Positions 30,473 through 50,579 of a stretch of DNA of 64,000 bases are shown piece after piece. Positions within the stretch are counted from its first letter, which is position 1. Every line of letters begins with the position of its first letter. Where the stretch lies: the NCBI GenBank assembly GCA_964458155.1, contig CAYWGP010000171.1, forward strand, positions 11,073 through 75,072. Direction: 5' to 3'. The position numbers and the translations under genes were made by a program. Origin of the DNA: an uncultured Bacteroides sp. Its GTDB lineage: Bacteria; Bacteroidota; Bacteroidia; Bacteroidales; GCA-2748055. Under the pieces are notes generated by a model. The model saw nothing but the letters and a program-made list of their open reading frames with translations. It had not been told where the DNA came from and did not search any database.

Positions 30473-30955
30473 TTAATCTGTGAAATCAATTTTACGATGC
30501 GTTCCGTCGCAGTAGGGCATGTTCCGGGATTCCCCACACCGGCAAAAGGAAGTCATCGTTGCAGGCCTGAGCTTCTGGTCATCGCTCCCAATAATAGAGA
30601 ATTGTCCCTCTACCACAATGGGACCATCCCTCATAATGCGGATGCTTGTTGGTTTGTCTTTTCCTGAAAGGGATCTTGGAGTCTCTTCAACCGGGCTCAC
30701 TTGCCTTTGAACTTTTTGCTCCTCTTCAGTAAGGTCCTCATTATTCTTCCAGATCAGAGCCTGTGTGGGGCATTTGTTGACAACTTCGATGATTTTCCTG
30801 GAGGGAGCTCCATCCATATTCACCCAGGGTCTCCTTCCGGGATTAAAGACTTCGATCAGTTCCCTGAAACAGGTAGTGGCGTGGATACATTTGGAGGGTA
30901 TCCAGAATACGGTTATGTCGCCATTGGTGTATTGTCTGTTCCGTGGATCGTCCAT
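30473..30955 (-). CDS. Divergent 4Fe-4S mono-cluster domain fused to a CDGSH domain
   Basis: 160 aa. The N-terminal CIHATTC...NKCP pattern resembles Fer4_19. The C-terminus has CRCGESRNMPYCDGTH. Confidence 0.75.
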   Translation of the reverse strand: MDDPRNRQYTNGDITVFWIPSKCIHATTCFRELIEVFNPGRRPWVNMDGAPSRKIIEVVNKCPTQALIWKNNEDLTEEEQKVQRQVSPVEETPRSLSGKDKPTSIRIMRDGPIVVEGQFSIIGSDDQKLRPATMTSFCRCGESRNMPYCDGTHRKIDFTD

Positions 30956-36678: not shown

Positions 36679-38400
36679 CTAATCTAAGACTTTTCGGTCA
36701 ATTTCGGAAGCGGGTCCGCTTAAATGTAATGGAATACAGCTCCAGTTCATAAAGGTTTGGGATCTGAGGGTATCCTGCTGCCTGAGATATTCCATGAGGT
36801 AGTAACGAAGGTCCCTGTCGGTGGACCAGGCTATACGCTTTGCCAGCTCCTCTCCGGGAATGCCGGCTCCAGTGGTCAGATGTCCGCCTCCACCGTTACC
36901 TCGGTAGGAGTTGATAGCCACACTGTACGTGTCTGTTTCCCGGAAGGGGCTTCCGTCAGAGAAAGACTGTATGCTGACCCGATCGCCGGGGACCCTGCTA
37001 ACATCGACTGTATAGTTTATTCCTGCAGCAGAGGAGAAATTATAATAGGGAGAGGCCAGACGGCCGGGCTGATCGGTGCTGAATTGAAGGAGGTGCTCCC
37101 CGGGACCGGACATGGTATTAAACCAGGGACCCACTGCATGCTCCAGAAATCCGTCAATCTCAGCTCCTGTTAGTTGCATCCGGTAAAGCATGTTTTCGAA
37201 GCGGTAAAGCTTAAACATATCGGACACCAGTAACGGTCCCTTTTTCAGTTTTGCATGGATGGAAAGAGGAGCGGTGAATGAGATCTTTGCACCTGTCATT
37301 TCCAGCTGGAGGCTATGTATTAAGCTCATCATGGATGAAGGGCCGAACAGAGCATCCACCCCTTCCATATCCTCTGAAAGCCAGGTAATGGTATCTTCCA
37401 GGTACTTTGATACGATTTCATATTCGGTGGCGAACTCTTCCAAAAAATCTTCGGAAGGCCTATAAGCGGACATGGGAATATTCTCACCTCTTATATTGTT
37501 ACCCTCCCTGGTGAAAGTGATTATTGCTTCTCCTGCAAAGCGACCGTGACTGCCCGGGTCAATGACCAGCACGCTGTCGCCCTCACAGTTGACTATCTTC
37601 TGTGACGAGACCCGGTGATCATGTCCGGCAAAAATTATATGGAATCCCGGCACCTGTTCGGCCACCAGCATAACAGCATTTTCATTCAGGTAGGGATCCG
37701 GATTTCCTCCATAGGAAGCATCCGTTCCGGAATGGAACAGGCCCACCATCAGATCCGGATTCTCCTCTTTTATTATCCGTGGAACCCATTCCCGGGCCGT
37801 GGCGATCATATCCAGGAATTCCATTTCGGGCCACAGATTTTTTGGAAGCCACTGTGGAATCCCGGGGGTGATAAGACCAAGTATGGCTATTTTCTTCCGT
37901 CCTGCTTTCAGAATGGTATAGGGTGCAAAGTAGGGTAAGCTGGTCGTGCTGTTCACCGCATTTGCCGCCAGCCAAGGAAACTGGAATGTACTCCTGACTC
38001 TGTCATACACTTCTGGTCCGGTTTCAATATCATGATTTCCAACAGTCCCGGCAGCATATCCCATGTAATTCATTACCCTGGACGAAAGGTGTTCCTGGGT
38101 GGTATCCACAAAATTGTAGTAGTAAACAGAAGGCTGGCCCTGCAAAAAATCACCATTGTCGAGGAGGAAAAAAAGGGTATCCTCATTCGCCCGTTTCCGG
38201 CTTACATAACTATATACGTGAGAAAGGGAATTATCTGTTTTCTGCCGGCTGATGAAATCCCTGGGGAAAATCATTCCATGTACATCTGTTGTAGTAGCTA
38301 TCCTGATGGTCATCTGCTCCTGTCTGCAGGAGGTGCTCAAGATCAGAATAGTCAGTAAAACAGTCAATAATCGGGCTTTTCCCATCATGTTTTTTAGCAT
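36679..38400 (-). CDS. Bifunctional metallophosphatase / 5'-nucleotidase (lipoprotein)
   Basis: 573 aa with a lipobox (ILSTSC), calcineurin-like motifs (TTDVHG, DNGDFLQG, GNHD, GHDH) and a C-terminal 5'-nucleotidase domain. Confidence 0.88.
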   Translation of the reverse strand: MLKNMMGKARLLTVLLTILILSTSCRQEQMTIRIATTTDVHGMIFPRDFISRQKTDNSLSHVYSYVSRKRANEDTLFFLLDNGDFLQGQPSVYYYNFVDTTQEHLSSRVMNYMGYAAGTVGNHDIETGPEVYDRVRSTFQFPWLAANAVNSTTSLPYFAPYTILKAGRKKIAILGLITPGIPQWLPKNLWPEMEFLDMIATAREWVPRIIKEENPDLMVGLFHSGTDASYGGNPDPYLNENAVMLVAEQVPGFHIIFAGHDHRVSSQKIVNCEGDSVLVIDPGSHGRFAGEAIITFTREGNNIRGENIPMSAYRPSEDFLEEFATEYEIVSKYLEDTITWLSEDMEGVDALFGPSSMMSLIHSLQLEMTGAKISFTAPLSIHAKLKKGPLLVSDMFKLYRFENMLYRMQLTGAEIDGFLEHAVGPWFNTMSGPGEHLLQFSTDQPGRLASPYYNFSSAAGINYTVDVSRVPGDRVSIQSFSDGSPFRETDTYSVAINSYRGNGGGGHLTTGAGIPGEELAKRIAWSTDRDLRYYLMEYLRQQDTLRSQTFMNWSCIPLHLSGPASEIDRKVLD

Positions 38401-38579: not shown

Positions 38580-38651
38580 TCTATATATATAGGGTGTGAA
38601 TCTTTGAACAATAAACCGGACATAGATACTTTAGCATCAAACCAATTAGCT

Positions 38652-39782
38652 ATGAAAATGAAACTATCTAAATTAATGCTACTGGGTGCTGTTGCCCTTC
38701 TTATTGGAGGTGCAGTTATCCTGAGTAGTTGTGAAGGTCCGGAAGGACCTGCGGGTGCCAACGGAACTAACGGTGTTGACGGTGTTGACGGTGTAGACGG
38801 TCAGGACGGTCAGGATGCCAACTCTACCTGTATTCTGTGTCACAGTGATGATCAGGTGATCGTTGCCAAGACCAGGCAGTATAATAATTCTGCCCACAAC
38901 ACCGGTCATACTTCCGGGTATACGAACAGGTCATTTGGTCCCCTGTATAATTGTGCAGGATGTCATACCAGCCAGGGATTCCTGGATGAACTGGTAGGTG
39001 CAAGTAATGTTCCCTATGCTGATATTACCCAGCCAAACTGCTACACCTGTCACAACATCCATGACACCTATACTACGGACGACTGGGCTCTGACAAACGG
39101 CGATCCCACTGTACCCTTTACCAATGCTGCTTATCAAACAGCCGCTGTTGATCTGGGTAACGGTAATCAGTGTACTCAATGTCACCAGTTCTCAGCCTAT
39201 TATCTTGTTATTGATTCGCTTTGGGCGGACTTTGACCTGGGAACGTCGACTGTGACTTTCCCAGCTGATAACAGTCTTAAGCGTGCTGGTGTGCATCATG
39301 CTCCCCAGTACAACATTTTTGCTGGAATGGACCTCTTTGAGTTTACAGGTACAACTGCCTATCCAACCAGCAACCACGTTATGGCTCAGGCTCCTGACGG
39401 ATGTGTTACCTGCCATATGAATGATGGATTTGGTGACCTCACCGGACACTCCATGTCGATGACTTATGATTTCCATGGTCCTGATAATTTGCACTGGTCC
39501 TCCTCTTGTACAGAATGTCATGATGGCGAGGATGAGCTGGATGGCAAAGTTGAAGATATTCAAACTGACGTCCAACTGCTGCTGGATGACCTGGAAACGC
39601 TCTTGCTTGCATCCGGAGTAATGACTGCTGATTATTACATTGCTCCTGGAGTATGGACCACTGACTTAACAGCAGCCACAGTAAATTTCAATGCCATTCG
39701 TGAAGATAAGAGTATTGGATTCCACAACGTGGACTATGTTGAGGCAGTTCTCATGAATACCATTGCAGCTATTACTCCTTAA
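38652..39782 (+). CDS. Hexahaem c-type cytochrome lipoprotein with a collagen-like Gly-X-Y stalk
   Basis: ATG at 38652 gives MKMKLSKLMLLGAVALLIGGAVILSSC, a lipobox. Nine G-X-Y triplets follow, then six CxxCH motifs (CILCH, CAGCH, CYTCH, CTQCH, CVTCH, CTECH). Confidence 0.9.
   Translation: MKMKLSKLMLLGAVALLIGGAVILSSCEGPEGPAGANGTNGVDGVDGVDGQDGQDANSTCILCHSDDQVIVAKTRQYNNSAHNTGHTSGYTNRSFGPLYNCAGCHTSQGFLDELVGASNVPYADITQPNCYTCHNIHDTYTTDDWALTNGDPTVPFTNAAYQTAAVDLGNGNQCTQCHQFSAYYLVIDSLWADFDLGTSTVTFPADNSLKRAGVHHAPQYNIFAGMDLFEFTGTTAYPTSNHVMAQAPDGCVTCHMNDGFGDLTGHSMSMTYDFHGPDNLHWSSSCTECHDGEDELDGKVEDIQTDVQLLLDDLETLLLASGVMTADYYIAPGVWTTDLTAATVNFNAIREDKSIGFHNVDYVEAVLMNTIAAITP
38736..38816 (+). repeat. Collagen-like triplet run with 9-bp tandem DNA repeats
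   Basis: Encodes GPE-GPA-GAN-GTN-GVD-GVD-GVD-GQD-GQD. The DNA reads ggtgttgac ggtgttgac ggtgtagac ggtcaggac ggtcaggat. Confidence 0.9.
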
Positions 39783-39858: not shown

Positions 39859-40554
39859 TTAGCCTGTTTCGCTGATTTGTTTTATGCGCTTATAGTCGAT
39901 AACCTCAATGGATTTCCCATCCATCTTGATGAGGCCCTCGTCGTTAAACTCCTTCAGCATCCGGATGACCGTTTCGGGGCTCATGCCGGATAATTCGGCC
40001 AGCTCTTTCCTGGATAATGGCAGGTCAAATTCACAATTTTTAAAGATCCGGTCTGCCAGGCACAACAGGATGTCAGCAAGTCTGCCAAAAGCCTGCTTGT
40101 AAGTAAAGCAAAAGAACCTTCCGTATATCTGCAGACTGTTGGAGCTAAGAATATCAATAATTTCTTTTGTGAAATCAAAATTCTCCTTCATCAGGGTACG
40201 GAATGCTTTTACTTCTATTTGCCTGATCTCAGAGTCAATATAGGCCGTGGCAGAGTAGGGGAAATAGGCGTGCTCTTCCGAAACAGAAGAAAGCCCGAGA
40301 AAATTCCTGTCCGGCGTGATCCGCAGTATAAGGGAATTGCTTCCATTTTCCAGGAAAACCTTGGCTAGCCCCGATTCCATATATATTACATGAGATACAA
40401 AGCCGCCTTGTTTGCATATGACCTCTCCTTTCCTGTACTTAATTCTGACAGAGTTCTCATCCAGGAATTCCTTCTGCCCGGGAGTAAGATGCTCGAAGCA
40501 GCGGCACTCGTGGAAACTCAGGGTGCATGCAGAAAACTTTATTGACTCGTCCAT
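39859..40554 (-). CDS. Crp/Fnr-family transcriptional regulator with N-terminal Cys residues
   Basis: It has a cNMP-binding-like beta-roll and a C-terminal HTH (SRKELAELSGMSPETVIRMLKEF). ATG at 40554 is preferred because the GTG at 40575 overlaps a TATATTTG -7 box. The N-terminus reads MDESIKFSACTLSFHECRC. Confidence 0.85.
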   Translation of the reverse strand: MDESIKFSACTLSFHECRCFEHLTPGQKEFLDENSVRIKYRKGEVICKQGGFVSHVIYMESGLAKVFLENGSNSLILRITPDRNFLGLSSVSEEHAYFPYSATAYIDSEIRQIEVKAFRTLMKENFDFTKEIIDILSSNSLQIYGRFFCFTYKQAFGRLADILLCLADRIFKNCEFDLPLSRKELAELSGMSPETVIRMLKEFNDEGLIKMDGKSIEVIDYKRIKQISETG

Positions 40555-40574
40555 CCATCTATGCTTAGAGTTCA

Positions 40575-40582
40575 CAAATATA
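40575..40582 (-). promoter_or_regulatory. -7 promoter box (TATATTTG on the minus strand) for the FNR-like regulator
   Basis: Plus-strand CAAATATA lies 21 nt upstream of the ATG at 40554. Confidence 0.4.
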
Positions 40583-40602
40583 CAAAAGAATCATAAAAAA
40601 AA

Positions 40603-40644
40603 TTGATTTGTGTCAGCTTCTTACTCCATTTAAATCAGTTAAAA
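40603..40644. promoter_or_regulatory. Conserved 42-nt block with an FNR-like box, TTGAT-TTGT-GTCAG, copy 1
   Basis: 33 of 42 nt are identical to 42229-42270 within otherwise dissimilar intergenic DNA. The block starts exactly 183 nt before the ATG at 40786. Confidence 0.55.
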
Positions 40645-40785
40645 CTCGTCCATATTCCGGTGGAATTTCATACATAAATCCCCCTTTTATCAAAGATTAT
40701 GACGTTAGGCACACAATAATTTCGCTAGATTTACTTGCTGAGAACTAAATCATTACACAAGAGATATACCTTAGATTTTACAGGC

Positions 40786-42138
40786 ATGAGAAACTTAAAG
40801 AATGGTTCAGTACGGATTGTTTTCTTAATAATACTATTAAGCGCTGTGATTGGGTGCACTAATTACCAGATTCCAGGGAGTACTTCACCTGGACCAGAGG
40901 AAAACAATTGTGAGACGTGCCATACTGACTATGACCGCCTGGTAGAAGTATATACACCTGATACAGTGGCTCCTGTAAAGGGCTACGGTGTGGAGGCCCC
41001 TCAGTATGCGCCCTATGACCGGGTTTTTTTAGGAGGTAGCGGCTATGATTCTTATAAAGCATCGGGACACTACGCGGTAGGTTGTACAGGCTGTCATAAC
41101 GGCGATGGTGGTACCGGGGAGAAAGATCTTGCTCATACGGGGGATTTCATTTCCCATCCTTCCCAGTTCTATGAAGACAAATGCGCTGCCTGCCACCAGG
41201 ATATTACAAATGATTTTACAAGCAGTATTCATAATGGTACAGGTTTGAAACGTATGGTGGCTATGCGAAGCGGGCTAAGTGGGGCTTCCGAATTTGATCA
41301 GCTTCCACAGCATCAGATAGATGGCTACAATGATAATTGTGCAATATGTCACGGAGACTGTGGTAACTGTCATGTGGTCAGGCCACCCATGAGTGGTGGG
41401 GGATTGGCAGATGGTCATAATTTTAATAAAACACCCGATATGTCCAATGTCTGTCTGAGCTGTCATGCCGAAACTATAGGTCATGATTTCCAGGGTATCG
41501 ATCCGGCTACTGAGCCTGATATTCACCTGACTCTGAATGACTTTGATTGTCTTAGTTGTCATGACGGCCCTGAATTGCATGGGGATGGTCAGCCAGTGGA
41601 CCAGCGCTATGCTTACGCTGAGCTCCCCGAGTGTGAGAGTTGCCACACCGGAATAGAAACTGCAAATAACTTTCATACGGTACATATTGGCGATTTCAAT
41701 TGCCAGGTGTGCCATTCCCAGGACTTCAATAACTGTGGCAGCTGCCATATCGGAGGTGATGACGCCAGAATCCCTGCATATCTGGGTTTCAAGATCGCAG
41801 TCAATCCGCTACCCGATCTGATGGATTATTCATTTACTTTGGTCAGAAGAACAACGACTGCCCCGGATAACTGGGTAGAGTATGGTGTGGCTGAGTATGC
41901 AGACTTTGATGTGCATCCAACATATAACTATGCATCCCCCCATAACATTTTAAGGTTGACCGACCGGACTGATGTAGGAACAGAAAGTTGTAATTCTAAT
42001 TGCCACATCCGCAAGGAAGGGGAGACATACGTGAACAAAGAACTGTATCTGTTCCAGTCTGACCTGCTGGACTGGGAGATGGATGCAGATAGTGCTATCA
42101 TTGTTGATGGTAAGCTGCCCGACTACTGGATGAACTAA
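40786..42138 (+). CDS. Decahaem c-type cytochrome lipoprotein with an additional CX3CH motif, paralog 1
   Basis: ATG at 40786 gives MRNLKNGSVRIVFLIILLSAVIGC, a lipobox. There are ten CxxCH motifs plus C-terminal CNSNCH. Confidence 0.9.
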   Translation: MRNLKNGSVRIVFLIILLSAVIGCTNYQIPGSTSPGPEENNCETCHTDYDRLVEVYTPDTVAPVKGYGVEAPQYAPYDRVFLGGSGYDSYKASGHYAVGCTGCHNGDGGTGEKDLAHTGDFISHPSQFYEDKCAACHQDITNDFTSSIHNGTGLKRMVAMRSGLSGASEFDQLPQHQIDGYNDNCAICHGDCGNCHVVRPPMSGGGLADGHNFNKTPDMSNVCLSCHAETIGHDFQGIDPATEPDIHLTLNDFDCLSCHDGPELHGDGQPVDQRYAYAELPECESCHTGIETANNFHTVHIGDFNCQVCHSQDFNNCGSCHIGGDDARIPAYLGFKIAVNPLPDLMDYSFTLVRRTTTAPDNWVEYGVAEYADFDVHPTYNYASPHNILRLTDRTDVGTESCNSNCHIRKEGETYVNKELYLFQSDLLDWEMDADSAIIVDGKLPDYWMN

Positions 42139-42228
42139 AGTCAGTTTCAGGCTTCAAATTTGCTGACTGATTGATTTCTGTAATCTGGGGATCTTTCGGA
42201 CCCGGATATGATAAAATCATGAAATTTA

Positions 42229-42270
42229 CTGATTTGAATCAGCTTCAGACTGCACCTAAATCAGTTTAAA
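42229..42270 (+). promoter_or_regulatory. Conserved 42-nt block with a palindromic FNR-like box, CTGAT-TTGA-ATCAG, copy 2
   Basis: CTGAT/ATCAG are perfect inverted half-sites with N4 spacing. The block starts exactly 183 nt before the ATG at 42412. Confidence 0.55.
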
Positions 42271-42411
42271 TACAGTGGCTATTTCAATTGTTTTTCCTTT
42301 CACAAATGCCCTAAATACCCAATCTTTACAGCGGTTAATACCATGATTGTCTATTGATTATTTTGTGTGTTAACTACTTCATTTATAATGGATTATTAGA
42401 TTAGAAAAAAT

Positions 42412-43776
42412 ATGAGAAACACAAAGTTTTTTTCAGGGCTGGCCCTATTGTTGATGGTGTTTTTAATTGCCGGGATCGGGTGCACGAATTACCAGGTTCC
42501 GGGAAGCGGGAATAATGGAGAGATCTCTGCCAACTCCTGCGAGGGATGCCACACGGATTATGACCGTCTGGTTGCTGTGCATTCACCTGATACTGCTGCG
42601 CCGGTTGGAGGTTGTGGTGGAGAGGCTCCTCATTACGAGCCATACGACCGGGTTTATCTTGGTGGGACGGGATATGACTCTTTTAAAGCTTCCGGTCATT
42701 ACAGTGTTGGATGTACAGGATGCCATAATGGAAATGGGAAGACGGGTGATAAGAATGAGGCCCATTCGGGTGATTGGATTTCCTCACCCTCCCTTGATCA
42801 CCAGGAGAAATGTGTTACCTGTCATGAGAGTGTAAGCGATGGTTTTGTCACCAGTATTCACAATGGAACCGGACAGAAGCGAAAGGTAACCATGCGATCG
42901 GGATTGGCAGGACCGGAAGAATTTGATCAGCTGCCCGCACACCAGATAGATGGCTATAACCAGAAATGTTCGGTATGCCATGGTACCTGTGGAAATTGCC
43001 ACGTTGTACGCCCCGACATTGCCGGGGGAGGCTTATCCAATGGACATAATTTCAATAAGACCCCGGATTGGTACAATATATGTTCGGCCTGCCATGTATC
43101 CAGGGGTGCGCACGCATTCCTTGGTGTGAATCCGGAAACTGAACCTGACTTTCACAGAGATGAGTTAGATTTTACCTGCCTGACATGCCATGATGGTGTT
43201 GAGCTTCACGGTGACGGACAGCCGGTAGAGCAGCGTTATGCCTATACCGAGCTGCCCGAGTGTGAAGATTGTCATGAGGGACTGGAAAGGGAGAACAATT
43301 TTCACTCGATGCACTATGACGATTTTCAGTGTCAGATCTGCCACTCTCAGGATTATAACAACTGTGGCGAGTGCCACATTGCAGATGGCCATGCTGAATA
43401 TGGGCCATATATGGACTTTAAGATCGCCATGAACACAATTCCTGATATTAAGGAACATAAGTTAGCCCTGGTTCGCCGCACCCTTGCTTACCCCGATAAC
43501 TGGGTGGGCTTTGGAGAGGATCTTACATATGATAACTTTGAGGAGTTTCCAACCTATAATTATACCACTCCTCATAATATACTGGAGAGAACCACACGCA
43601 CAGATGTGGGTAGTGGAGCCTGTTATTCCAATTGCCACATACGCAATGAAGGTGGAACACTGATTAATTCAGAGTATTATCTCTGGAAAGACAGTCTGCT
43701 TACATGGGAACTGGAGGCCACTCAGGCTTATGCTGTGGACGGGCAATTGCCAGCCTCCTGGTTCGAAGAAAAATAG
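42412..43776 (+). CDS. Decahaem c-type cytochrome lipoprotein with an additional CX3CH motif, paralog 2
   Basis: Lipobox MVFLIAGIGC. All ten CxxCH motifs sit at the same relative spacing as in paralog 1. The C-terminus has CYSNCH. Confidence 0.9.
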   Translation: MRNTKFFSGLALLLMVFLIAGIGCTNYQVPGSGNNGEISANSCEGCHTDYDRLVAVHSPDTAAPVGGCGGEAPHYEPYDRVYLGGTGYDSFKASGHYSVGCTGCHNGNGKTGDKNEAHSGDWISSPSLDHQEKCVTCHESVSDGFVTSIHNGTGQKRKVTMRSGLAGPEEFDQLPAHQIDGYNQKCSVCHGTCGNCHVVRPDIAGGGLSNGHNFNKTPDWYNICSACHVSRGAHAFLGVNPETEPDFHRDELDFTCLTCHDGVELHGDGQPVEQRYAYTELPECEDCHEGLERENNFHSMHYDDFQCQICHSQDYNNCGECHIADGHAEYGPYMDFKIAMNTIPDIKEHKLALVRRTLAYPDNWVGFGEDLTYDNFEEFPTYNYTTPHNILERTTRTDVGSGACYSNCHIRNEGGTLINSEYYLWKDSLLTWELEATQAYAVDGQLPASWFEEK

Positions 43777-43825
43777 CAAACAATTCCAACAATAGAAAAT
43801 AATGTTTAACCAAATCACTATTAAA

Positions 43826-44815
43826 ATGAAGATTATATCGAAGATGAAATTTTGGATGTTAGCCATCCTGGTTGTTCCATTTTTCCTGGTTTCCTGCGAC
43901 AATGATGAGGATCCCGAAGAGGTAAATGAAGCTGAAGTACTCATTGAATACATGGAAAATCCGGGATCGCCGGCTGCCAACTATGGCAACTCAGGTCTTG
44001 CTATCAAGAGTGCCGAGGCTACTCATGCAGGAGTGGTTGCGGACAATGTATATGTCATTGACATTCGAGCTGCTGCTGATTACACTACCGGTCACATCGA
44101 AGGAGCAGTAAATCTTGCTGCTGCTGATGTGAGGGCTCATATTGATGCCACCGATCTAAGCGCTTTCAATGAAATTCACATTGTATGTTATACCGGTCAG
44201 TCTGCTTCCTGGCTGACCAGCCTCCTGCAGCTGGCAGGTTACAAAAACGTTTATTCCATGAAATGGGGAATGAGCGGATGGCACTCTGACTTTGACAAAT
44301 GGACCGCAAATACCAACAGCGACAAGGCCACCCTTTTTGTAGAAGCTTCGACTGATAAAGCTGCTGAAGGAGATCTTCCTGTCCTGACTACCGGTTATGA
44401 AGAAGGAGTAGATATCTTTGAAGCCCGTTATGATGCAGTACTGGCCGAAGGTTTTGGCCCAGCCGCAGTTTCTCAGGGTGATGTATATGCCAGCCTGGAC
44501 AATTATTACATCATTAATTACTGGCCTAATGCTGAGTACATTGATCCGGGTCACATCGATGGCTCCATGCAGTATACTCCCAACGAGGACCTTCAGTTGG
44601 GCACTTACTTAAAGACTCTGCCTACCGACAAAACTATCGCTGTGTATTGCTATACCGGGCAGAACAGTGCAAGAATTGCAGCTTATCTGAGGCTTATGGG
44701 ATACGATGCCAAGTCACTGAAGTTTGGGGCCAACAGTATGATCTGGTCTGAGATGACCAAATCCAAGTGGACTCCTGAAGCACCAATGCAATATGATTAT
44801 GTTGGAATGAAATAA
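43826..44815 (+). CDS. Tandem-rhodanese (sulfurtransferase-like) lipoprotein
   Basis: Lipobox VVPFFLVSC followed by an acidic DNDEDPEE tail. There are two rhodanese domains, each with a catalytic-loop Cys (VCYTGQSAS, YCYTGQNSA). Alternative starts are at 43802 and 43844. Confidence 0.85.
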   Translation: MKIISKMKFWMLAILVVPFFLVSCDNDEDPEEVNEAEVLIEYMENPGSPAANYGNSGLAIKSAEATHAGVVADNVYVIDIRAAADYTTGHIEGAVNLAAADVRAHIDATDLSAFNEIHIVCYTGQSASWLTSLLQLAGYKNVYSMKWGMSGWHSDFDKWTANTNSDKATLFVEASTDKAAEGDLPVLTTGYEEGVDIFEARYDAVLAEGFGPAAVSQGDVYASLDNYYIINYWPNAEYIDPGHIDGSMQYTPNEDLQLGTYLKTLPTDKTIAVYCYTGQNSARIAAYLRLMGYDAKSLKFGANSMIWSEMTKSKWTPEAPMQYDYVGMK

Positions 44816-44860
44816 GCAAAAGTACTTTGATGCTAGTTTTAACATAGTAAGCTACAACTA

Positions 44861-44894
44861 TAAGGGTGCTCCTGTTTGGGCACCCTTATTTGTT
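44861..44894 (+). terminator. Rho-independent terminator after the rhodanese gene
   Basis: TAAGGGTGC (44861-44869) pairs with GCACCCTTA (44880-44888), followed by TTTGTT. Confidence 0.7.
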
Positions 44895-45077
44895 CTTTAT
44901 ATATCCGGGTTCCCAATAATTTTAGCCTTGCACCGCTTCAGGATCGGAAAAACAAAGAATTTATAATGGTTATAGATTAGGCATTCCGGGCAATTTTGGC
45001 CCGGATATTGAATTATAATTGATAAGAAATAGATTATTTTAGCGAACAAGTCTGAAATTATCAAAAAACAATTAGCT

Positions 45078-45605
45078 ATGTTGACAAAACGAATATTCAC
45101 TTTAGCCTTGATGGTCTTCTTTGCAGGGAGTGCACTGATGGCCCAGAATTTCAAGTACATTGGAGCAGCAAAATGTAAAATGTGTCATGTGAAGCCCGCT
45201 ACAGGTGAACAGTACAATATTTGGTTAAAAGGTCCCCATGCAGGAGCCATGAAAACCCTGGCCGGTGATGAAGCAAAGAAAATTGCCACTGAAAAGGGAA
45301 TTGCTGATCCCACAACGGATGCAGCCTGTATCAGCTGTCACGCTACTGTTGCCGGTGTTGATGCCAAACTAATTGCCAGTGCAAAAATGGATGAGGGTGT
45401 TTCCTGCGAAACCTGCCACGGACCAGGAAGCATGTACAAGGGAGCTTCGGTTATGAAGAACCGTGATCTGGCCCTAACAAAAGGAATGATAATTCCTACG
45501 GAGGAGACATGTACAGCCTGTCACAATGAAAAGAGTCCTACCTTTAAGGGCTTTAATTACACTGAGATGTTAGCTAAGATTGCTCATCCCAATCCTGCAA
45601 AATAA
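45078..45605 (+). CDS. Tetrahaem c-type cytochrome (cytochrome c554-like small multihaem protein), secreted
   Basis: 175 aa with a Sec signal peptide (AGSALMAQN) and four CxxCH motifs (CKMCH, CISCH, CETCH, CTACH). Confidence 0.88.
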   Translation: MLTKRIFTLALMVFFAGSALMAQNFKYIGAAKCKMCHVKPATGEQYNIWLKGPHAGAMKTLAGDEAKKIATEKGIADPTTDAACISCHATVAGVDAKLIASAKMDEGVSCETCHGPGSMYKGASVMKNRDLALTKGMIIPTEETCTACHNEKSPTFKGFNYTEMLAKIAHPNPAK

Positions 45606-46533: not shown

Positions 46534-49335
46534 TTAATGTACTCCTCCTGCAATGAGAGTGTAAACAATAGCTATGATCAGGAGGATCCCAATGATCAGT
46601 GCCGTAAATCCCAGGATTCTAATCATGCGCATGTAATCTTTGGAGAATTCTTTCGCATGGACTCGTTGATCCAGCTTTCCGGCCTCTTTTAATTCCTCGT
46701 ATTCCCGGGGACGTTCATGTTTGAAGTGTTCAAGGGGCATATATCCCGTAAATATTACGGTATCCATGGGGAAAGCTTCCGGCCTGAAATGTGTATTGAA
46801 GAAGTGGATGGTGAAAATAAATCCAACCGCCAGCAGCGCTTCATCACTGTGAATGATCTGGCTTATATTGATGAGCCATCCCGGGAAGAAACGGGTGAAG
46901 AATACCGGGAACCACAGTACAAGGCCGCTGAATCCGATTACTGCAACCCCCCAGAAGACAGCAATGTAGTCAAACTTCTCCCAGTAGGTCCATCTGCCAT
47001 AATAAGGCCTGGGACCTTTTCCAAGGAACCATTTTATAGTGGCAACGAAATCCCTTATATCCTGCTTGTTGAACCAGAGAGTGTCTTTGCCAAAAATAAA
47101 TTTGGTCATGGAAAGCCTTTTCCTCCTTTTCTCCCGAATCAGGTTAAAAATGTGGAAGGCGAAATAGCCAAAGGTGATTACAGCACCAATGCGATGTAGC
47201 ACGCCGGCAGTTTGGACACCTCCAAAGAACCTGGACAGAAACTTTGCCCAATCCATATGGGCAAACTTCAGCATCATTCCGGTCACGGCCAGAAGGATGA
47301 AACTAATAATTACGAAAATATGCGTGATCCGTTGGTTCTTGCTGAAGCGTTTATAGTAGAGATTCCCGGTTTCTTTGGGTCCTTCTTTCCTCTTTTTCCG
47401 TCTTTCTTTTACAGATCTGGGCAACCACATCAGGAGGTGAATTCCGAAGAAAGTAAATACACCCAGCAAAAGTGCGGTCATAAAGATATATGCATAATGC
47501 AATTTTGGATCATCTTTATGAGTGGCATGGCTCAAATAACCAGTAAAACGTTTGTTTGCTCCCTCATGGCAGCTTCCACAGGTTGTCACCAGGTTTTCTT
47601 CAGAGACCATGGATGCCGGGTTATTGGCCTTCAGGATATTGTGCGCACCATGACAATCGGAACACCTGGCGCTTTCATAGTAGCCCAGCTGATAGGCTTT
47701 GCCATGATAAGTTTGCATGTACGTTTTTGCCGTTTCCTCATGACAGGATCCACACTGGTGAGTAACTTCATTCATAAATTTATCCTGTCCAACAGTAGAA
47801 ATCTCATGTGCACTGTGACATTTAACGCAGGTGGGATACTCAGTACCCTGGGGGTCGGTTCTGTAGGCATGGTCGCTTTCCAGGTAGGTCTCATAGATTC
47901 CTTGATGACAGACCCCGCAGGTCGTCTGAACATTTGCAGGATGTACCGAAGAGCGTTCATCCTCCATTTTCAGCTCCATGTGGGAGGTGTGGCAGTCGGT
48001 ACATACAGCACTTACCGTTAATCCTTTGCCTGTGAGCCCCATGCCATGGACACTGGAGGAATAATCAGCCAAAGCATTGGTCTCAAGGATACCCTCCACC
48101 TCGGCTGCTAAGCCGTCCTCTCGGTGACATTCTCCGCACAATTGGGGGATTGCCATTCTGTAAACAGGGGAGGTGTCGTCGTATTTGGATTTAGTTGCAT
48201 GTGTCCCGTGACAATCGGTGCAGTAAGGGGCGTTTGCCTGATTATTATAATACGCCTGGCCATGCCCGCTTTCAAAGTACATACCAGAGATCTCGGCATG
48301 GCAGGATGAGCAGTCCACCGGCTGGTTGGTGGAGCAGGGGCGTTGCAGATGATCGGTAACCTGAGTATGACAATCGGTACACTGGATATTCTTGTGTACT
48401 GAATTGGGGAGCTCACGATTATCCCGGAATAAGGAAACAGTATCCCCCCCGACTATCTTATGCAAATTTTCATCCTGGTGGCACTTCATACATGCCTGGT
48501 CAGATATCCTGGCCTGAATCTTGGGTACGTCCACAATATGGGGCGGGTGACAGGAAGAACAGGCTGGAATGATACTTGGATTCTTCTCCCACAGCTCGCC
48601 CTTGATTACCTTTTTATGGGCTTCCTCAATTCTTGTGTGACATTTCATGCAGGTACCGGCAATCCTGTTTGTGGAAATGGAGGAATTGGGACTGGTATGA
48701 GGAAGCACCAGGTGGTTGCCGTGACAGTCGTTGCAGGTGGCAGTTACTACCAGTCCGGCTTCAAATAAGCCCTGGCCATGAATACCCTGGGTATAGTTCT
48801 CCACGATATTGTGTTCAGATACATCATATACCCTGGCCACAACCTCGCCCTCTTTGTGGCATCTTCCACAGAGGTAGGGAATATTCATCTTATAGGTGCG
48901 GGATGCTGTATTGCTGTTATGCAGGATATCGTGGTGACCGTGGCACTCCTTGCAGCTGGGAGCATTGGAATCATTACTTAAGAGAGCCTGTCCATGGACA
49001 CCTCTTACATTATTTTCCATCTCAACAGTATGGCAGCTTCCGCAATTGACCGGTTTCAGATCATCGGCATGGGGAAAACCTTCATCGGCAGCATCGGAAT
49101 GACAGGAGATACAGGTGTTGCTGTGGTGAACCGAGTGTGCAAAGATGGAGGTATCCACAAACATGGACACGGTCCTGCCATGGAGTAAACCGGTCAGTGA
49201 GCGGTCCTCATGGCACATCATACAATCCTCATCGGCCTGTGCAGTTACCAGGCCTGAAAACGAGCCTGCTACTATGAACAGAATGAACCAGAATGCCCTG
49301 GTTCTGGAGAGTGAAAACAAGTAATTATTGGTCAT
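46534..49335 (-). CDS. 19-haem c-type cytochrome fused to an integral-membrane cytochrome-b-like domain (CbcL-like quinol:cytochrome module)
   Basis: 933 aa with a signal peptide and 19 CxxCH motifs in aa 38-590, many of the paired form CxxCHGxH. From about aa 611 there are 5-6 TM helices with conserved His ([32 protein letters not shown]). Confidence 0.9.
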
Positions 49336-49745: not shown

Positions 49746-50579
49746 TTAGAACCTGATTGTGATGTTAAAACCAAAGCGGAAATCACCATCCCAGGGATCA
49801 TTGCTGTTAAATGCAATACTCTGATTCCTCACAATGTAGTCGTAGGTGGATGCGAAAACCCTGAATGAGTGGGTGCTGGTTCCGATCTCCACACCAAAGG
49901 CCAGGTTTGGATATACATCTGTATCAGCATCAATCAGAGGCTGCTCATATTCAAGTATGATGGAAGAAAAGCCCAGTACCTGAAAACGCGCTCCTGCATT
50001 GATGGAAGCATTTATATTGTTATATCCTTCCGGCACCGCGTTGAACCATACAAAAGTAGGTAATACCTGTAAACTGATCTTTTCTCCGACCCTGCTGGAT
50101 ATAATCAGCTCATTGAGATAGGACATGCGGTAGGCAAACTTGTAATCCTCTTCAGGTCCGAAGTATTTCTGGTCACGTGCATCCAGGACTGCATTACCAT
50201 GGTAGGACAGGGAAATAGGCAAGCTACTGTTCTGGGTCAGAATGGCATATTTCCACTCCAGGTCCTGAAGCATGTCTTTCCGGGTGGTACCAAAACCCAC
50301 CATAAGCTTGTCGGTAATTCCGTAGCTGATTCCAATCCGGGTATTGGCACTTCCATAGATCCCGTACAGGTCGTTAATCTCTTCGATCTGGGAGAAACGG
50401 TGCTGGATTTCCAGCATGAATTGTCCCTTGTAAGGGCTTGCAGTGGTCTGGGCATCTACCAGAGTCAGTGTCTCAAAAGCCGGCATTACCGGAGTGGGCT
50501 CATCCTGGGCAAATAAAAGCCCTGAGCTTAAGAATGCAATAATACAGGTAGTGGCGCTTAGTTTTGTATATCGTCTCAT
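49746..50579 (-). CDS. Small outer-membrane beta-barrel protein (DUF5777-like as I recall the family)
   Basis: 277 aa with signal peptide LLFAQDE, alternating amphipathic strands, and C-terminal ...GFNITIRF ending in Phe. Confidence 0.7.
   Translation of the reverse strand: MRRYTKLSATTCIIAFLSSGLLFAQDEPTPVMPAFETLTLVDAQTTASPYKGQFMLEIQHRFSQIEEINDLYGIYGSANTRIGISYGITDKLMVGFGTTRKDMLQDLEWKYAILTQNSSLPISLSYHGNAVLDARDQKYFGPEEDYKFAYRMSYLNELIISSRVGEKISLQVLPTFVWFNAVPEGYNNINASINAGARFQVLGFSSIILEYEQPLIDADTDVYPNLAFGVEIGTSTHSFRVFASTYDYIVRNQSIAFNSNDPWDGDFRFGFNITIRF

Follow-up and report, generated by a model that had tools for sequence, protein, structure and literature searches.

Two adjacent genes in the window (the whole 64,000-nucleotide stretch of DNA that was analysed) encode paralogous multihaem lipoprotein cytochromes. 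Paralog 2 probably represents the Cys version of a so far undescribed undecahaem reductase that exists in Sec and Cys forms and acts with a rhodanese on sulfane sulfur or a related chalcogen, and paralog 1 a derived electron-transfer copy, roles that we infer. A reactive Cys or Sec together with a near-constant rhodanese neighbour suggests a new kind of enzyme for the respiration of sulfur or selenium compounds. The motifs, their conservation, the pairing of Sec with Cys, and the linkage and fusion to rhodanese are established at the level of sequence comparison.

The initial annotation described two adjacent genes of 450 and 454 aa, and both reading frames are borne out; for paralog 1 a longer ORF from a TTG start (40735-42138, 467 aa) is also present. 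The similarity of the products, judged by eye as about two-thirds identity, is real, with a slightly lower figure of 273/451 identical positions by BLASTP (61%, 74% positives, 2 gaps). Both proteins carry the expected Cys24 followed by TNYQ, within VIGC in paralog 1 and GIGC in paralog 2, and both signal peptides end in a match to the lipobox pattern [LVI][ASTVI][GAS]C. The lipobox-column Cys is also conserved in 93% of the Sec forms, and lipidation is predicted. Each paralog qualifies as a multihaem c-type cytochrome by its lipobox-bearing signal peptide and its ten CxxCH motifs. The first Cys of these motifs lies at 59, 117, 150, 202, 209, 240, 272, 300, 323, and 334 in paralog 1 (TTG-ORF numbering) and at 43, 101, 134, 186, 193, 224, 256, 284, 307, and 318 in paralog 2, exactly as first listed. 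The constant offset of 16 drawn from these lists holds in TTG-ORF numbering; from the ATG start, the motifs of paralog 1 run from 42 to 317, and the true offset to paralog 2 is therefore +1. The back-to-back CxxCH-x2-CGNCH pair is found in both paralogs (CAICHGDCGNCH and CSVCHGTCGNCH), and the C-terminal CxSNCH sits in each at precisely the coordinates given before. The two paralogs contain no further C-x3-CH, C-x4-CH, or CxxCK motifs. A recent tandem duplication was rejected, because each paralog has closer orthologues elsewhere, with 80-85% identity in other genomes, and the two fall into different subclades of a rough neighbour-joining tree. Most members of the paralog 1 subclade are without the lone Cys described below.

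Table 1. Positions in the window of the two cytochrome genes, their sites, and the adjoining features.
Feature	Position	Strand	Description and basis
Crp/Fnr-family regulator	39859..40575	-	Divergent; N-terminal Cys residues (SACTLSFHECRC); Pfam cNMP_binding and HTH_Crp_2
Paralog 1	40786..42138	+	450 aa lipoprotein cytochrome from ATG; 10 CxxCH and 1 CX3CH; Cys-less (Tyr67) type
Lipobox Cys24, paralog 1	40855..40857	+	AVIGC then TNYQ; invariant in alignment A1
Tyr67 codon TAC, paralog 1	40984..40986	+	Most family members have Cys in this column; other phyla have TGA (Sec)
CAICH-GD-CGNCH pair, paralog 1	41338..41373	+	Haems 4 and 5; sequence
CNSNCH, paralog 1	41989..42006	+	Proposed eleventh haem site (CX3CH); sequence and conservation
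Paralog 2	42412..43776	+	454 aa lipoprotein cytochrome; 10 CxxCH and 1 CX3CH; Cys-bearing type; adjoins rhodanese gene
Cys68 codon TGT, paralog 2	42613..42615	+	In GGCGGEAPHYEPYDRV; candidate catalytic residue, Cys counterpart of Sec; column alignment
CSVCH-GT-CGNCH pair, paralog 2	42967..43002	+	Sequence
CYSNCH, paralog 2	43621..43638	+	Proposed eleventh haem site (CX3CH); sequence and conservation
Lipoprotein with two rhodanese domains	43802..44815	+	Pfam Rhodanese, E = 4.8e-25, two stretches
Terminator-like hairpin and T run	44860..44889	+	12 pairs; closes the cytochrome-cytochrome-rhodanese unit

The lone Cys68 of paralog 2, absent from the initial annotation, belongs to the family motif GGCGG and lies in a Gly-rich loop about 20-22 residues past haem 1. 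TGA-form loci were examined as approximately 9 kb around each gene. In all 80 Chloroflexota and Actinomycetota loci (80/80), an in-frame TGA in the context G-E-G-TGA-G-G occupies the Cys68 column; a signal peptide or lipobox and haem 1 are encoded upstream of it, and no separate signal peptide is encoded downstream. A hairpin with a 5-7 bp stem and a GUU/GGU loop begins 11 nt past the TGA and shows compensatory changes at three of five pairs, one of which exchanges Pro..Ala in the protein for Ala..Pro. Cys stands in the same column in 103 of 116 close homologues (GGCGG), in 81 of the 82 cytochrome genes of the Bacteroidota loci, and in several distant representatives. The relatives combine three features expected of a selenoprotein family: a conserved in-frame UGA, a downstream hairpin, and Cys orthologues at the same column. 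Rfam SECIS models gave chance-level matches at the TGA, and the contrast in hairpin energy between TGA forms and Cys forms is confounded by GC content. Since the column of Cys68 holds an in-frame TGA in these loci, with a covarying hairpin after it, a Sec/Cys pair is indicated, in which the lone residue would be Sec (GEG-U-GG) in Chloroflexota, Actinomycetota, and Rokubacteria and Cys (GGCGG) in Bacteroidota. This candidate catalytic site is more informative as a redox site than CX3CH; Cys68 could otherwise be a haem ligand or merely structural.

The second recurrent feature is the rhodanese. Each domain of the rhodanese lipoprotein in the window has its active-site loop Cys (VCYTGQSA and YCYTGQNS), and the gene order Crp, cytochrome, and directly downstream rhodanese recurs in nearly all of the 80 Bacteroidota loci, with the Crp/Fnr regulator at the same position upstream of the cytochrome. 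Among the Sec loci, 61 of 80 have an adjacent rhodanese gene on the same strand, and a Rokubacteria protein, also with the TGA, has the cytochrome fused to two rhodanese domains. The terminator-like hairpin that closes the unit is the sole strong site on the + strand in 40500-45200. Two cytochrome copies occur in none of the 80 species-representative Bacteroidota loci (0/80); tandem pairs were found only in the window, L085, and L169, where a Cys-less copy accompanies a Cys copy and a rhodanese. Cys-less copies without rhodanese stand alone at L170 and L171, and L017 probably holds a further one, a paralog-1-type gene that directly precedes the c554-like gene and has its Cys column at the contig edge. 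All Cys-less copies seen are either the extra member of a tandem or unaccompanied by rhodanese. The window cluster also encodes a DUF5777 beta-barrel, a 933 aa multihaem and cytochrome b protein, and a c554-like tetrahaem protein. The idea that an upstream 573 aa metallophosphoesterase is SoxB was rejected, since it reaches 52.7 bits with the SoxB model, whose cut-off is 550; its best-scoring assignment is cyclic-nucleotide phosphodiesterase or nucleotidase. No Rfam or tRNA matches were found in the window, and a sigma-70 promoter scan, which is unsuited to Bacteroidota, was uninformative with 14 sites found against 9.3 expected.

For haem occupancy, catalysis by Cys68, substrate, and the direction of electron flow, we infer the following scheme. 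Both paralogs would be membrane-anchored lipoprotein cytochromes with ten haems at CxxCH and the eleventh at the C-terminal CX3CH, and the family would work with a multi-domain rhodanese, encoded adjacent or fused. The rhodanese would take sulfane sulfur from polysulfide, elemental sulfur, thiosulfate, or a selenium equivalent as a persulfide and hand it to the Cys or Sec of the cytochrome. Electrons would then arrive via the haem chain and sulfide would be released. In the window, the electron source is probably menaquinol, via the 933 aa protein and the c554-like tetrahaem protein. Paralog 2, with Cys68 and beside the rhodanese, would be the catalytic copy. Paralog 1 has all eleven haem sites and all eleven extra His but has Tyr67 in place of the reactive residue, and is therefore most likely a plain electron-transfer or terminal-reductase cytochrome. 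The substrate could also be thiosulfate, tetrathionate, selenite, or another compound, and the enzyme might run in the oxidative direction. Rhodanese domains have non-sulfur roles too.

The beta-barrel and the quinol-dehydrogenase-like multihaem neighbours fit a metal-reducing electron conduit equally well. Both paralogs could accordingly be terminal or relay cytochromes of an extracellular conduit, comparable to OmcA/MtrC or OcwA, that passes electrons to insoluble Fe(III)/Mn(IV) or electrodes, with no catalysis of their own and with the rhodanese and the Cys as accessories. OmcA/MtrC proteins (PF22113, TIGR03507) are likewise lipoproteins of similar haem number, both paralogs have many bis-His-type haem sites, and paralog 1 has a weak match to the MtrC/MtrF domain II/IV model PF22113 (37.9 bits, cut-off 30). 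Moreover, lone Cys-less copies of the paralog 1 type persist beside the barrel, cytochrome b, and tetrahaem genes without rhodanese. However, the module kept across phyla and unrelated genomic contexts is cytochrome plus rhodanese and not cytochrome plus barrel, Sec/Cys pairs typify catalytic redox residues, and the Cys is retained in all single-copy genes examined. Paralog 2 stays below the PF22113 cut-off at 19 bits, TIGR03507 of NCBIfam is not matched, and MtrC/OmcA structures are absent from the Foldseek results. OmcA/MtrC lack the rhodanese and Sec/Cys features, and the window family lacks the MtrC-type beta-barrel domains. A pure conduit is unlikely for the pair.

The closest solved structure, a remote match, is the octahaem tetrathionate reductase (OTR) of Shewanella (PDB 1SP3). 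A PDB search by single sequence gave nothing significant; by profile, 1sp3 was matched with E = 1.2e-11 over query positions 115-304, and the best match was the 278 aa 'cytochrome c' 28pb_A (E = 5.8e-12), to which the C-terminal domain aligns weakly. The AF2 model of paralog 1 reached a mean pLDDT of 90.9 with 149 diverse sequences, as against 33.6 with 26 close homologues; such models contain no haems. Its best Foldseek match was again 1sp3, with probability 0.98, TM 0.28, and rmsd 8.2 over 298 columns at 15% identity. The family appears to be distantly related to OTR, which in Shewanella oneidensis is also a periplasm-side multihaem c-type protein and acts on a sulfur compound. The OTR family includes a listed selenoprotein member (PMC13188914).

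This relationship raises the alternative of a thiosulfate/tetrathionate oxidoreductase, OTR-like or TsdA-like, in which the Cys or Sec would either ligate an active-site haem axially or serve as its covalent catalytic residue, and the rhodanese would scavenge products. The Cys follows haem 1 by about 22 residues, and His/Cys-ligated catalytic haems have precedents in TsdA, SoxAX, and DsrJ, as cited in a preprint (bioRxiv 10.1101/2025.05.29.656830), and in MccSep (PMC13510729). In contrast, the eleven non-motif His conserved in both clades, two of them relocated, already suffice for eleven bis-His haems, as an arithmetic count and not a ligand assignment. The Lys-ligated active-site haem 2 motif of OTR and the residues around it form an insertion with respect to the window-family profile and hence a gap in the family alignment. 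Likewise, the OTR family model TIGR04315, which has a cut-off of 375, gives the paralogs 19.8 and 17.3 bits, and paralog 1 retains every haem motif without the Cys. OTR has eight haems and the window family ten plus one; unlike OTR, the latter has the CxxCH-x2-CGxCH pair, haem 1 near the N-terminus together with the Cys/Sec loop, and the C-terminal domain of the last haem. An enzyme of the OTR or TsdA kind is improbable.

The sulfane-sulfur reductase favoured here has a precedent in MccSep/ExtKL of Geobacter sulfurreducens (PDB 9wt8; NF040886), a Sec-dependent pentahaem polysulfide reductase that also uses selenite, less well (PMC13510729). Its gene cluster, extHIJKLMNOPQS, also codes for the rhodanese-like lipoprotein ExtH (PMC5877670). 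The two systems share a multihaem c-type protein, a Sec/Cys residue, a rhodanese-like neighbour, and Sec forms that are recovered only via UGA readthrough. In sequence they are not significantly similar: NF040886 is not matched at E <= 0.1, and the alignment to 9wt8/9wt9 reaches no better than E = 0.1, across 30 residues. MccSep is a soluble tetramer of the periplasm with five haems and Cys ligation of the active-site haem, whereas the window family combines eleven haem sites with a predicted lipid anchor. PDGUPTPN, the Sec context of MccSep, is not related to GEGUGG, and MccSep occurs in Desulfobacterota and Nitrospirota, whereas the window family occurs in Bacteroidota, Chloroflexota, Actinomycetota, and Rokubacteria.

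As for haem number, the two proteins were first labelled decahaem, with CxSNCH as a possible eleventh site, and undecahaem is the better name. The Cys, Cys, and His of C-x3-C-H are kept in 119 of 119 close homologues, among which the inner residues vary freely. Loss of the Cys or His in homologues, which the initial annotation named as evidence against an eleventh haem, is not seen. Of the 83 distant representatives with a retained C-terminal domain, 27 have CX3CH at this site, 56 have CX2CH, and none (0) lacks both; relatives with CX2CH there reach a total of eleven CxxCH in 45 of 68 complete Sec-form genes. An invariant His (PHNI) is supplied by the conserved C-terminal domain. CX3CH is recognised as an atypical motif for haem c attachment (PMC11492766, PMC6295460). 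This conservation, with the interchange of CX2CH and CX3CH at one site, makes eleven haems, and not ten, the most likely number for both paralogs. A single CX3CH amid CX2CH motifs likewise occurs in ImcH, some CymA homologues, and an MtrA subclade, and in the MtrA subclade homologous positions alternate between the two forms as in the window family (PMC6295460; bioRxiv 10.1101/2025.05.29.656830). In those cytochromes, from families unrelated to this one, CX3CH comes first, at the N-terminus, whereas in the window family it comes last, within a distinct C-terminal domain. A disulfide or a metal site (e.g. Cu or Fe) in a non-haem domain of true decahaem proteins would suit the location of CX3CH in a mostly beta-strand C-terminal region of about 130 residues without other haem motifs (sequence; AF2 model), and MccA, a related enzyme, binds Cu through Cys residues, but the canonical CxxCH at the homologous position in the 56 distant representatives and the 68 complete Sec-form genes aligned, a CX3CH His as invariant as its two Cys, and the presence of an eleventh conserved distal-type His make it improbable.

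The initial annotation did not recognise the family, and indeed no curated family matches it. Pfam and NCBIfam scans of both paralogs and ten distant relatives returned only generic multihaem matches (Cytochrome_C7 and c3_2 for the paralogs in Pfam) or scores far below cut-offs. The signature CH[AT][ST]CG[QDE]CH is conserved family-wide and occurs in at least 600 stretches of species-representative genomes; the relatives there comprise at least 366 stretches of the Bacteroidota type and at least 594 of the Chloroflexota/Actinomycetota type. Members are frequent in genomes of Bacteroidales, Anaerolineae, Dehalococcoidia, and Acidimicrobiia that were assembled from metagenomes of sediment, sludge, and groundwater. 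Database labels for them read 'hypothetical' or, wrongly, sulfurtransferase. A multihaem protein of Dethiobacter alkaliphilus, DealDRAFT_1917, is encoded beside rhodanese genes and was 'misidentified as thiosulfate sulfurtransferase' (PMC10376724); it looks like a relative of the family from a cultured organism and offers a lead. Gene callers split the Sec forms, and selenoproteome and cytochrome surveys therefore overlook them. For annotation, proteins of the family may be counted as eleven-haem cytochromes, and the TGA of the Chloroflexota, Actinomycetota, and Rokubacteria genes read as Sec.

Few multihaem cytochromes act on sulfur compounds, and OTR, MccA, and MccSep (2026) each revealed new haem chemistry. 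We propose tentatively, as a possibility somewhat short of an even chance, that the family comprises undescribed, widespread, membrane-anchored undecahaem (seleno)enzymes in which an exposed Gly-loop Sec or Cys takes sulfane sulfur (or selenium) from the rhodanese, and an eleven-haem wire reduces this sulfur. If so, this would be a second, independently evolved haem-plus-selenium route to the respiration of elemental sulfur or polysulfide, and it would account for sulfur reduction in abundant uncultured anaerobes without molybdopterin polysulfide reductases. The window would then pair the enzyme with a Cys-less paralog converted to a plain electron carrier. Should the role hold, the natural Sec/Cys/Tyr series and the rhodanese fusion would serve for studying persulfide transfer to a haem wire, and the genes would be a genetic marker of sulfur or selenium respiration in groups currently scored as fermenters.

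Both open reading frames of the tandem multihaem lipoprotein pair are present as the initial annotation described them. Pairwise BLASTP gives 61% identity with two gaps, slightly less than the estimated two-thirds. The signal peptide of each ends at lipobox Cys24, followed by TNYQ, and the ten CxxCH motifs, including the CxxCH-x2-CGNCH pair, lie at matching positions, in agreement with the earlier reading. One C-x-S-N-C-H per paralog was found where it had been placed, and neither sequence holds any further atypical haem motif. Paralog 2 has an extra lone cysteine, Cys68, which aligns with Tyr in paralog 1.

No curated family in Pfam or NCBIfam covers either paralog; the matches are generic or far under cut-off, and the NCBIfam octahaem tetrathionate reductase model TIGR04315 scores 19.8 bits against a cut-off of 375. 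A search of 5.8 billion proteins returned 808 relatives, the best 120 of which are at least 58% identical. These 120 come from metagenome-assembled genomes of Bacteroidota and are annotated as 'hypothetical' or, at JGI, as 'thiosulfate/3-mercaptopyruvate sulfurtransferase'. Species-representative genomes yielded at least 366 stretches that encode the family, and the best 80 all belong to Bacteroidales, Marinilabiliales, Lentimicrobiaceae and similar groups. Among 1.84 billion cluster representatives, a profile search picked out 590 proteins, many of them about 30-35% identical to paralog 1.

The C-terminal CX3CH had been proposed as a possible eleventh haem site, with family-wide conservation of its Cys and His as the check. 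C-x3-C-H is kept in 119 of 119 scorable close homologues, while about 40 kinds of inner tripeptide occur. The C-terminal domain, FKI.xNP...VR(R/H)...PTxxY..PHNI, can be aligned across the superfamily, and in 83 distant representatives that retain it the homologous site is CX3CH in 27, canonical CX2CH in 56 and without a motif in none. It is CX2CH in the 68 complete genes from Chloroflexota and Actinomycetota, 45 of which have exactly eleven CxxCH motifs. The close family also has eleven invariant or near-invariant His residues outside the motifs, at paralog 1 positions 95, 117, 149, 176, 211, 233, 247, 265, 297, 300 and 386. An equal number is found in the distant clade, where two of them occupy other positions. 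Although rare, CX3CH is recognised as a haem c motif (PMC11492766, PMC6295460). Site conservation, the interchange of CX2CH and CX3CH and the eleven extra His support the proposal, and an eleventh haem at CX3CH is the best-supported reading of the sequences. The same evidence makes the rival view, CX3CH as a disulfide or non-haem metal site, unlikely. Paralog 1 keeps eleven haem motifs and the eleven extra His, and so looks functional as a cytochrome.

In most family members a single isolated Cys stands in GGCGGEAPHYEPYDRV, some 22 residues past haem 1. Many distant representatives apparently start just past this column and have no signal peptide. Eighty such truncated-looking loci, all from Chloroflexota or Actinomycetota, were fetched, and in 80 of 80 the frame extends 5' of the apparent start across an in-frame TGA codon in the context G-E-G-TGA-G-G; the sequence before that codon specifies the haem 1 motif as well as a signal peptide or lipobox. 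A hairpin, typically GCCUCC-GUU-GGAGGC, lies 11 nt past the TGA. Three of its five core pairs show compensatory changes, and one such change exchanges Pro...Ala for Ala...Pro in the protein. Judged from sequence, TGA, hairpin and Cys homologues together are the signature of a putative bacterial selenoprotein. The TGA forms (L089-L168, for example L089:573-632, and L172) read GEG-U-GG and span Chloroflexota, Actinomycetota and Rokubacteria. In public annotations these genes are split or cut short, so the apparent selenoprotein family goes unnoticed. Among the prokaryotic selenoprotein families tabulated in a 2026 review (PMC13188914) are ExtKL, an OTR-family member, GSU2204 and UshA-like proteins; none in the table matches the present cytochromes.

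Nearly all of the 80 best Bacteroidota loci share one gene order, namely a Crp/Fnr regulator on the minus strand, the cytochrome and a two-domain rhodanese lipoprotein, in variable wider surroundings. A same-strand rhodanese-domain gene adjoins the cytochrome in 61 of 80 selenocysteine-form loci, and most of the others are cut by contig ends. In the Rokubacteria protein P0154, the cytochrome is fused to two rhodanese domains, also with a TGA; this fusion is probably the source of the JGI sulfurtransferase label.

Paralogs 1 and 2 fall in separate subclades of a rough neighbour-joining tree, with P0002 (80% identical) and P0063 (85%) as respective orthologues. Among 82 cytochrome genes in the Bacteroidota loci, 81 have the Cys; only the upstream copy of the L085 tandem pair lacks it. 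In the window, L085 and L169, a Cys-less paralog 1-type gene stands in tandem, 5' of a Cys copy and a rhodanese gene, whereas in L170 and L171 it stands alone, with neither. L017 is probably a further lone case, a paralog 1-type gene with a c554-like gene directly after and the Cys column at the contig edge. In this sample, therefore, the presumed reactive Cys and the rhodanese occur together or are missing together.

Features of the cytochrome region and its surroundings in the window
Feature	Coordinates	Strand	Remarks
Fe-S protein, small	30473-30955	-	divergent 4Fe-4S mono-cluster domain (Fer4_19) and CDGSH iron-sulfur domain
UshA-like metallophosphoesterase lipoprotein	36679-38400	-	573 aa
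Multihaem lipoprotein	38604-39782	+	392 aa; collagen-like Gly-X-Y run at mature N-terminus (GPEGPAGANGTNGVDGVDGVDGQDGQD)
Crp/Fnr regulator	39859-40575	-	N-terminal Cys group C17, C24, C26
Paralog 1	40786 (ATG)-42138	+	450 aa; TTG ORF start at 40735
Paralog 2	42412-43776	+	454 aa
Hairpin with T run	44860-44889		12 bp; 3' of rhodanese gene
c554-like tetrahaem protein	45078-45605	+	175 aa
Multihaem/cytochrome b protein	46534-49335	-	933 aa; about 20 or more CxxCH; C-terminal Ni_hydr_CYTB/FdnI-like membrane domain
DUF5777 membrane beta-barrel	49746-50579	-	beside multihaem genes

From paralog 1 through to the rhodanese gene, no strong terminator intervenes. The mature rhodanese N-terminus (43802-43850) reads CDNDEDPEE, and several cytochromes in the alignment of close homologues begin CSKDNN... 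or CKKEED...; these acidic N-termini resemble the Bacteroidota lipoprotein surface-export signal, whereas both window cytochromes start with the non-acidic CTNYQ. Partners or lineages may thus differ in where these proteins are localised. The N-terminal Cys group of the regulator is reminiscent of the FNR Fe-S sensing region, which suggests that the module is controlled by anaerobiosis or redox state. Some relatives also keep the collagen-like-repeat lipoprotein gene upstream of the Crp gene. Transposase genes (rve; DDE_Tnp_1) lie between these two genes at L001:7702-8795 and L085:5517-6704, and this spot, near the site of the extra cytochrome copy, appears to be a rearrangement hot spot. The c554-like and UshA-like proteins each correspond to a separate half of NCBIfam NF041198, 'UshA-like (seleno)protein', a family in which both parts are fused; as separate genes they flank the cytochrome module in many relatives. 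The 933 aa protein is a candidate quinol dehydrogenase feeding the cluster, and the DUF5777 beta-barrel, whose gene recurs in related loci, is a possible outer-membrane partner. Together with the 392 aa lipoprotein and the c554-like protein, they form a set that some of the relatives share and that could be a source of electrons drawn from the quinone pool.

The nearest functional precedent for the undecahaem family is MccSep/ExtKL of Geobacter, a pentahaem enzyme that reduces polysulfide and depends on selenocysteine (PMC13510729); the extHIJKLMNOPQS cluster encodes it along with the rhodanese-like ExtH (PMC5877670). The PDB-sequence profile search found no significant similarity between MccSep/ExtKL and the present family. 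By analogy, and on comparative evidence, we infer that the rhodanese would pass sulfane sulfur to the Cys or selenocysteine of the cytochrome, where it would be reduced by the haem wire; the enzyme in this scheme would be paralog 2, with paralog 1 as a derived carrier. A pure electron-conduit role is a rival to this scheme. Another, an OTR-like or TsdA-like enzyme acting on thiosulfate or tetrathionate, would have a Cys-ligated haem. On the structural side, AlphaFold2 reached pLDDT 33.6 with a shallow alignment, and pLDDT 90.9 and pTM 0.84 with 149 diverse sequences. The sole Foldseek match in the PDB was Shewanella octahaem tetrathionate reductase 1SP3, at probability 0.98 but TM 0.28, with MccA and HAO at noise level; the PDB-sequence profile search agreed (1sp3, E = 1.2e-11, query positions 115-304). 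Both results point to a distant and heavily remodelled relative of the OTR group. Pending biochemical proof, the tandem pair leads to an uncharacterised, multi-phylum family of proposed Sec/Cys undecahaem cytochromes coupled to rhodanese.
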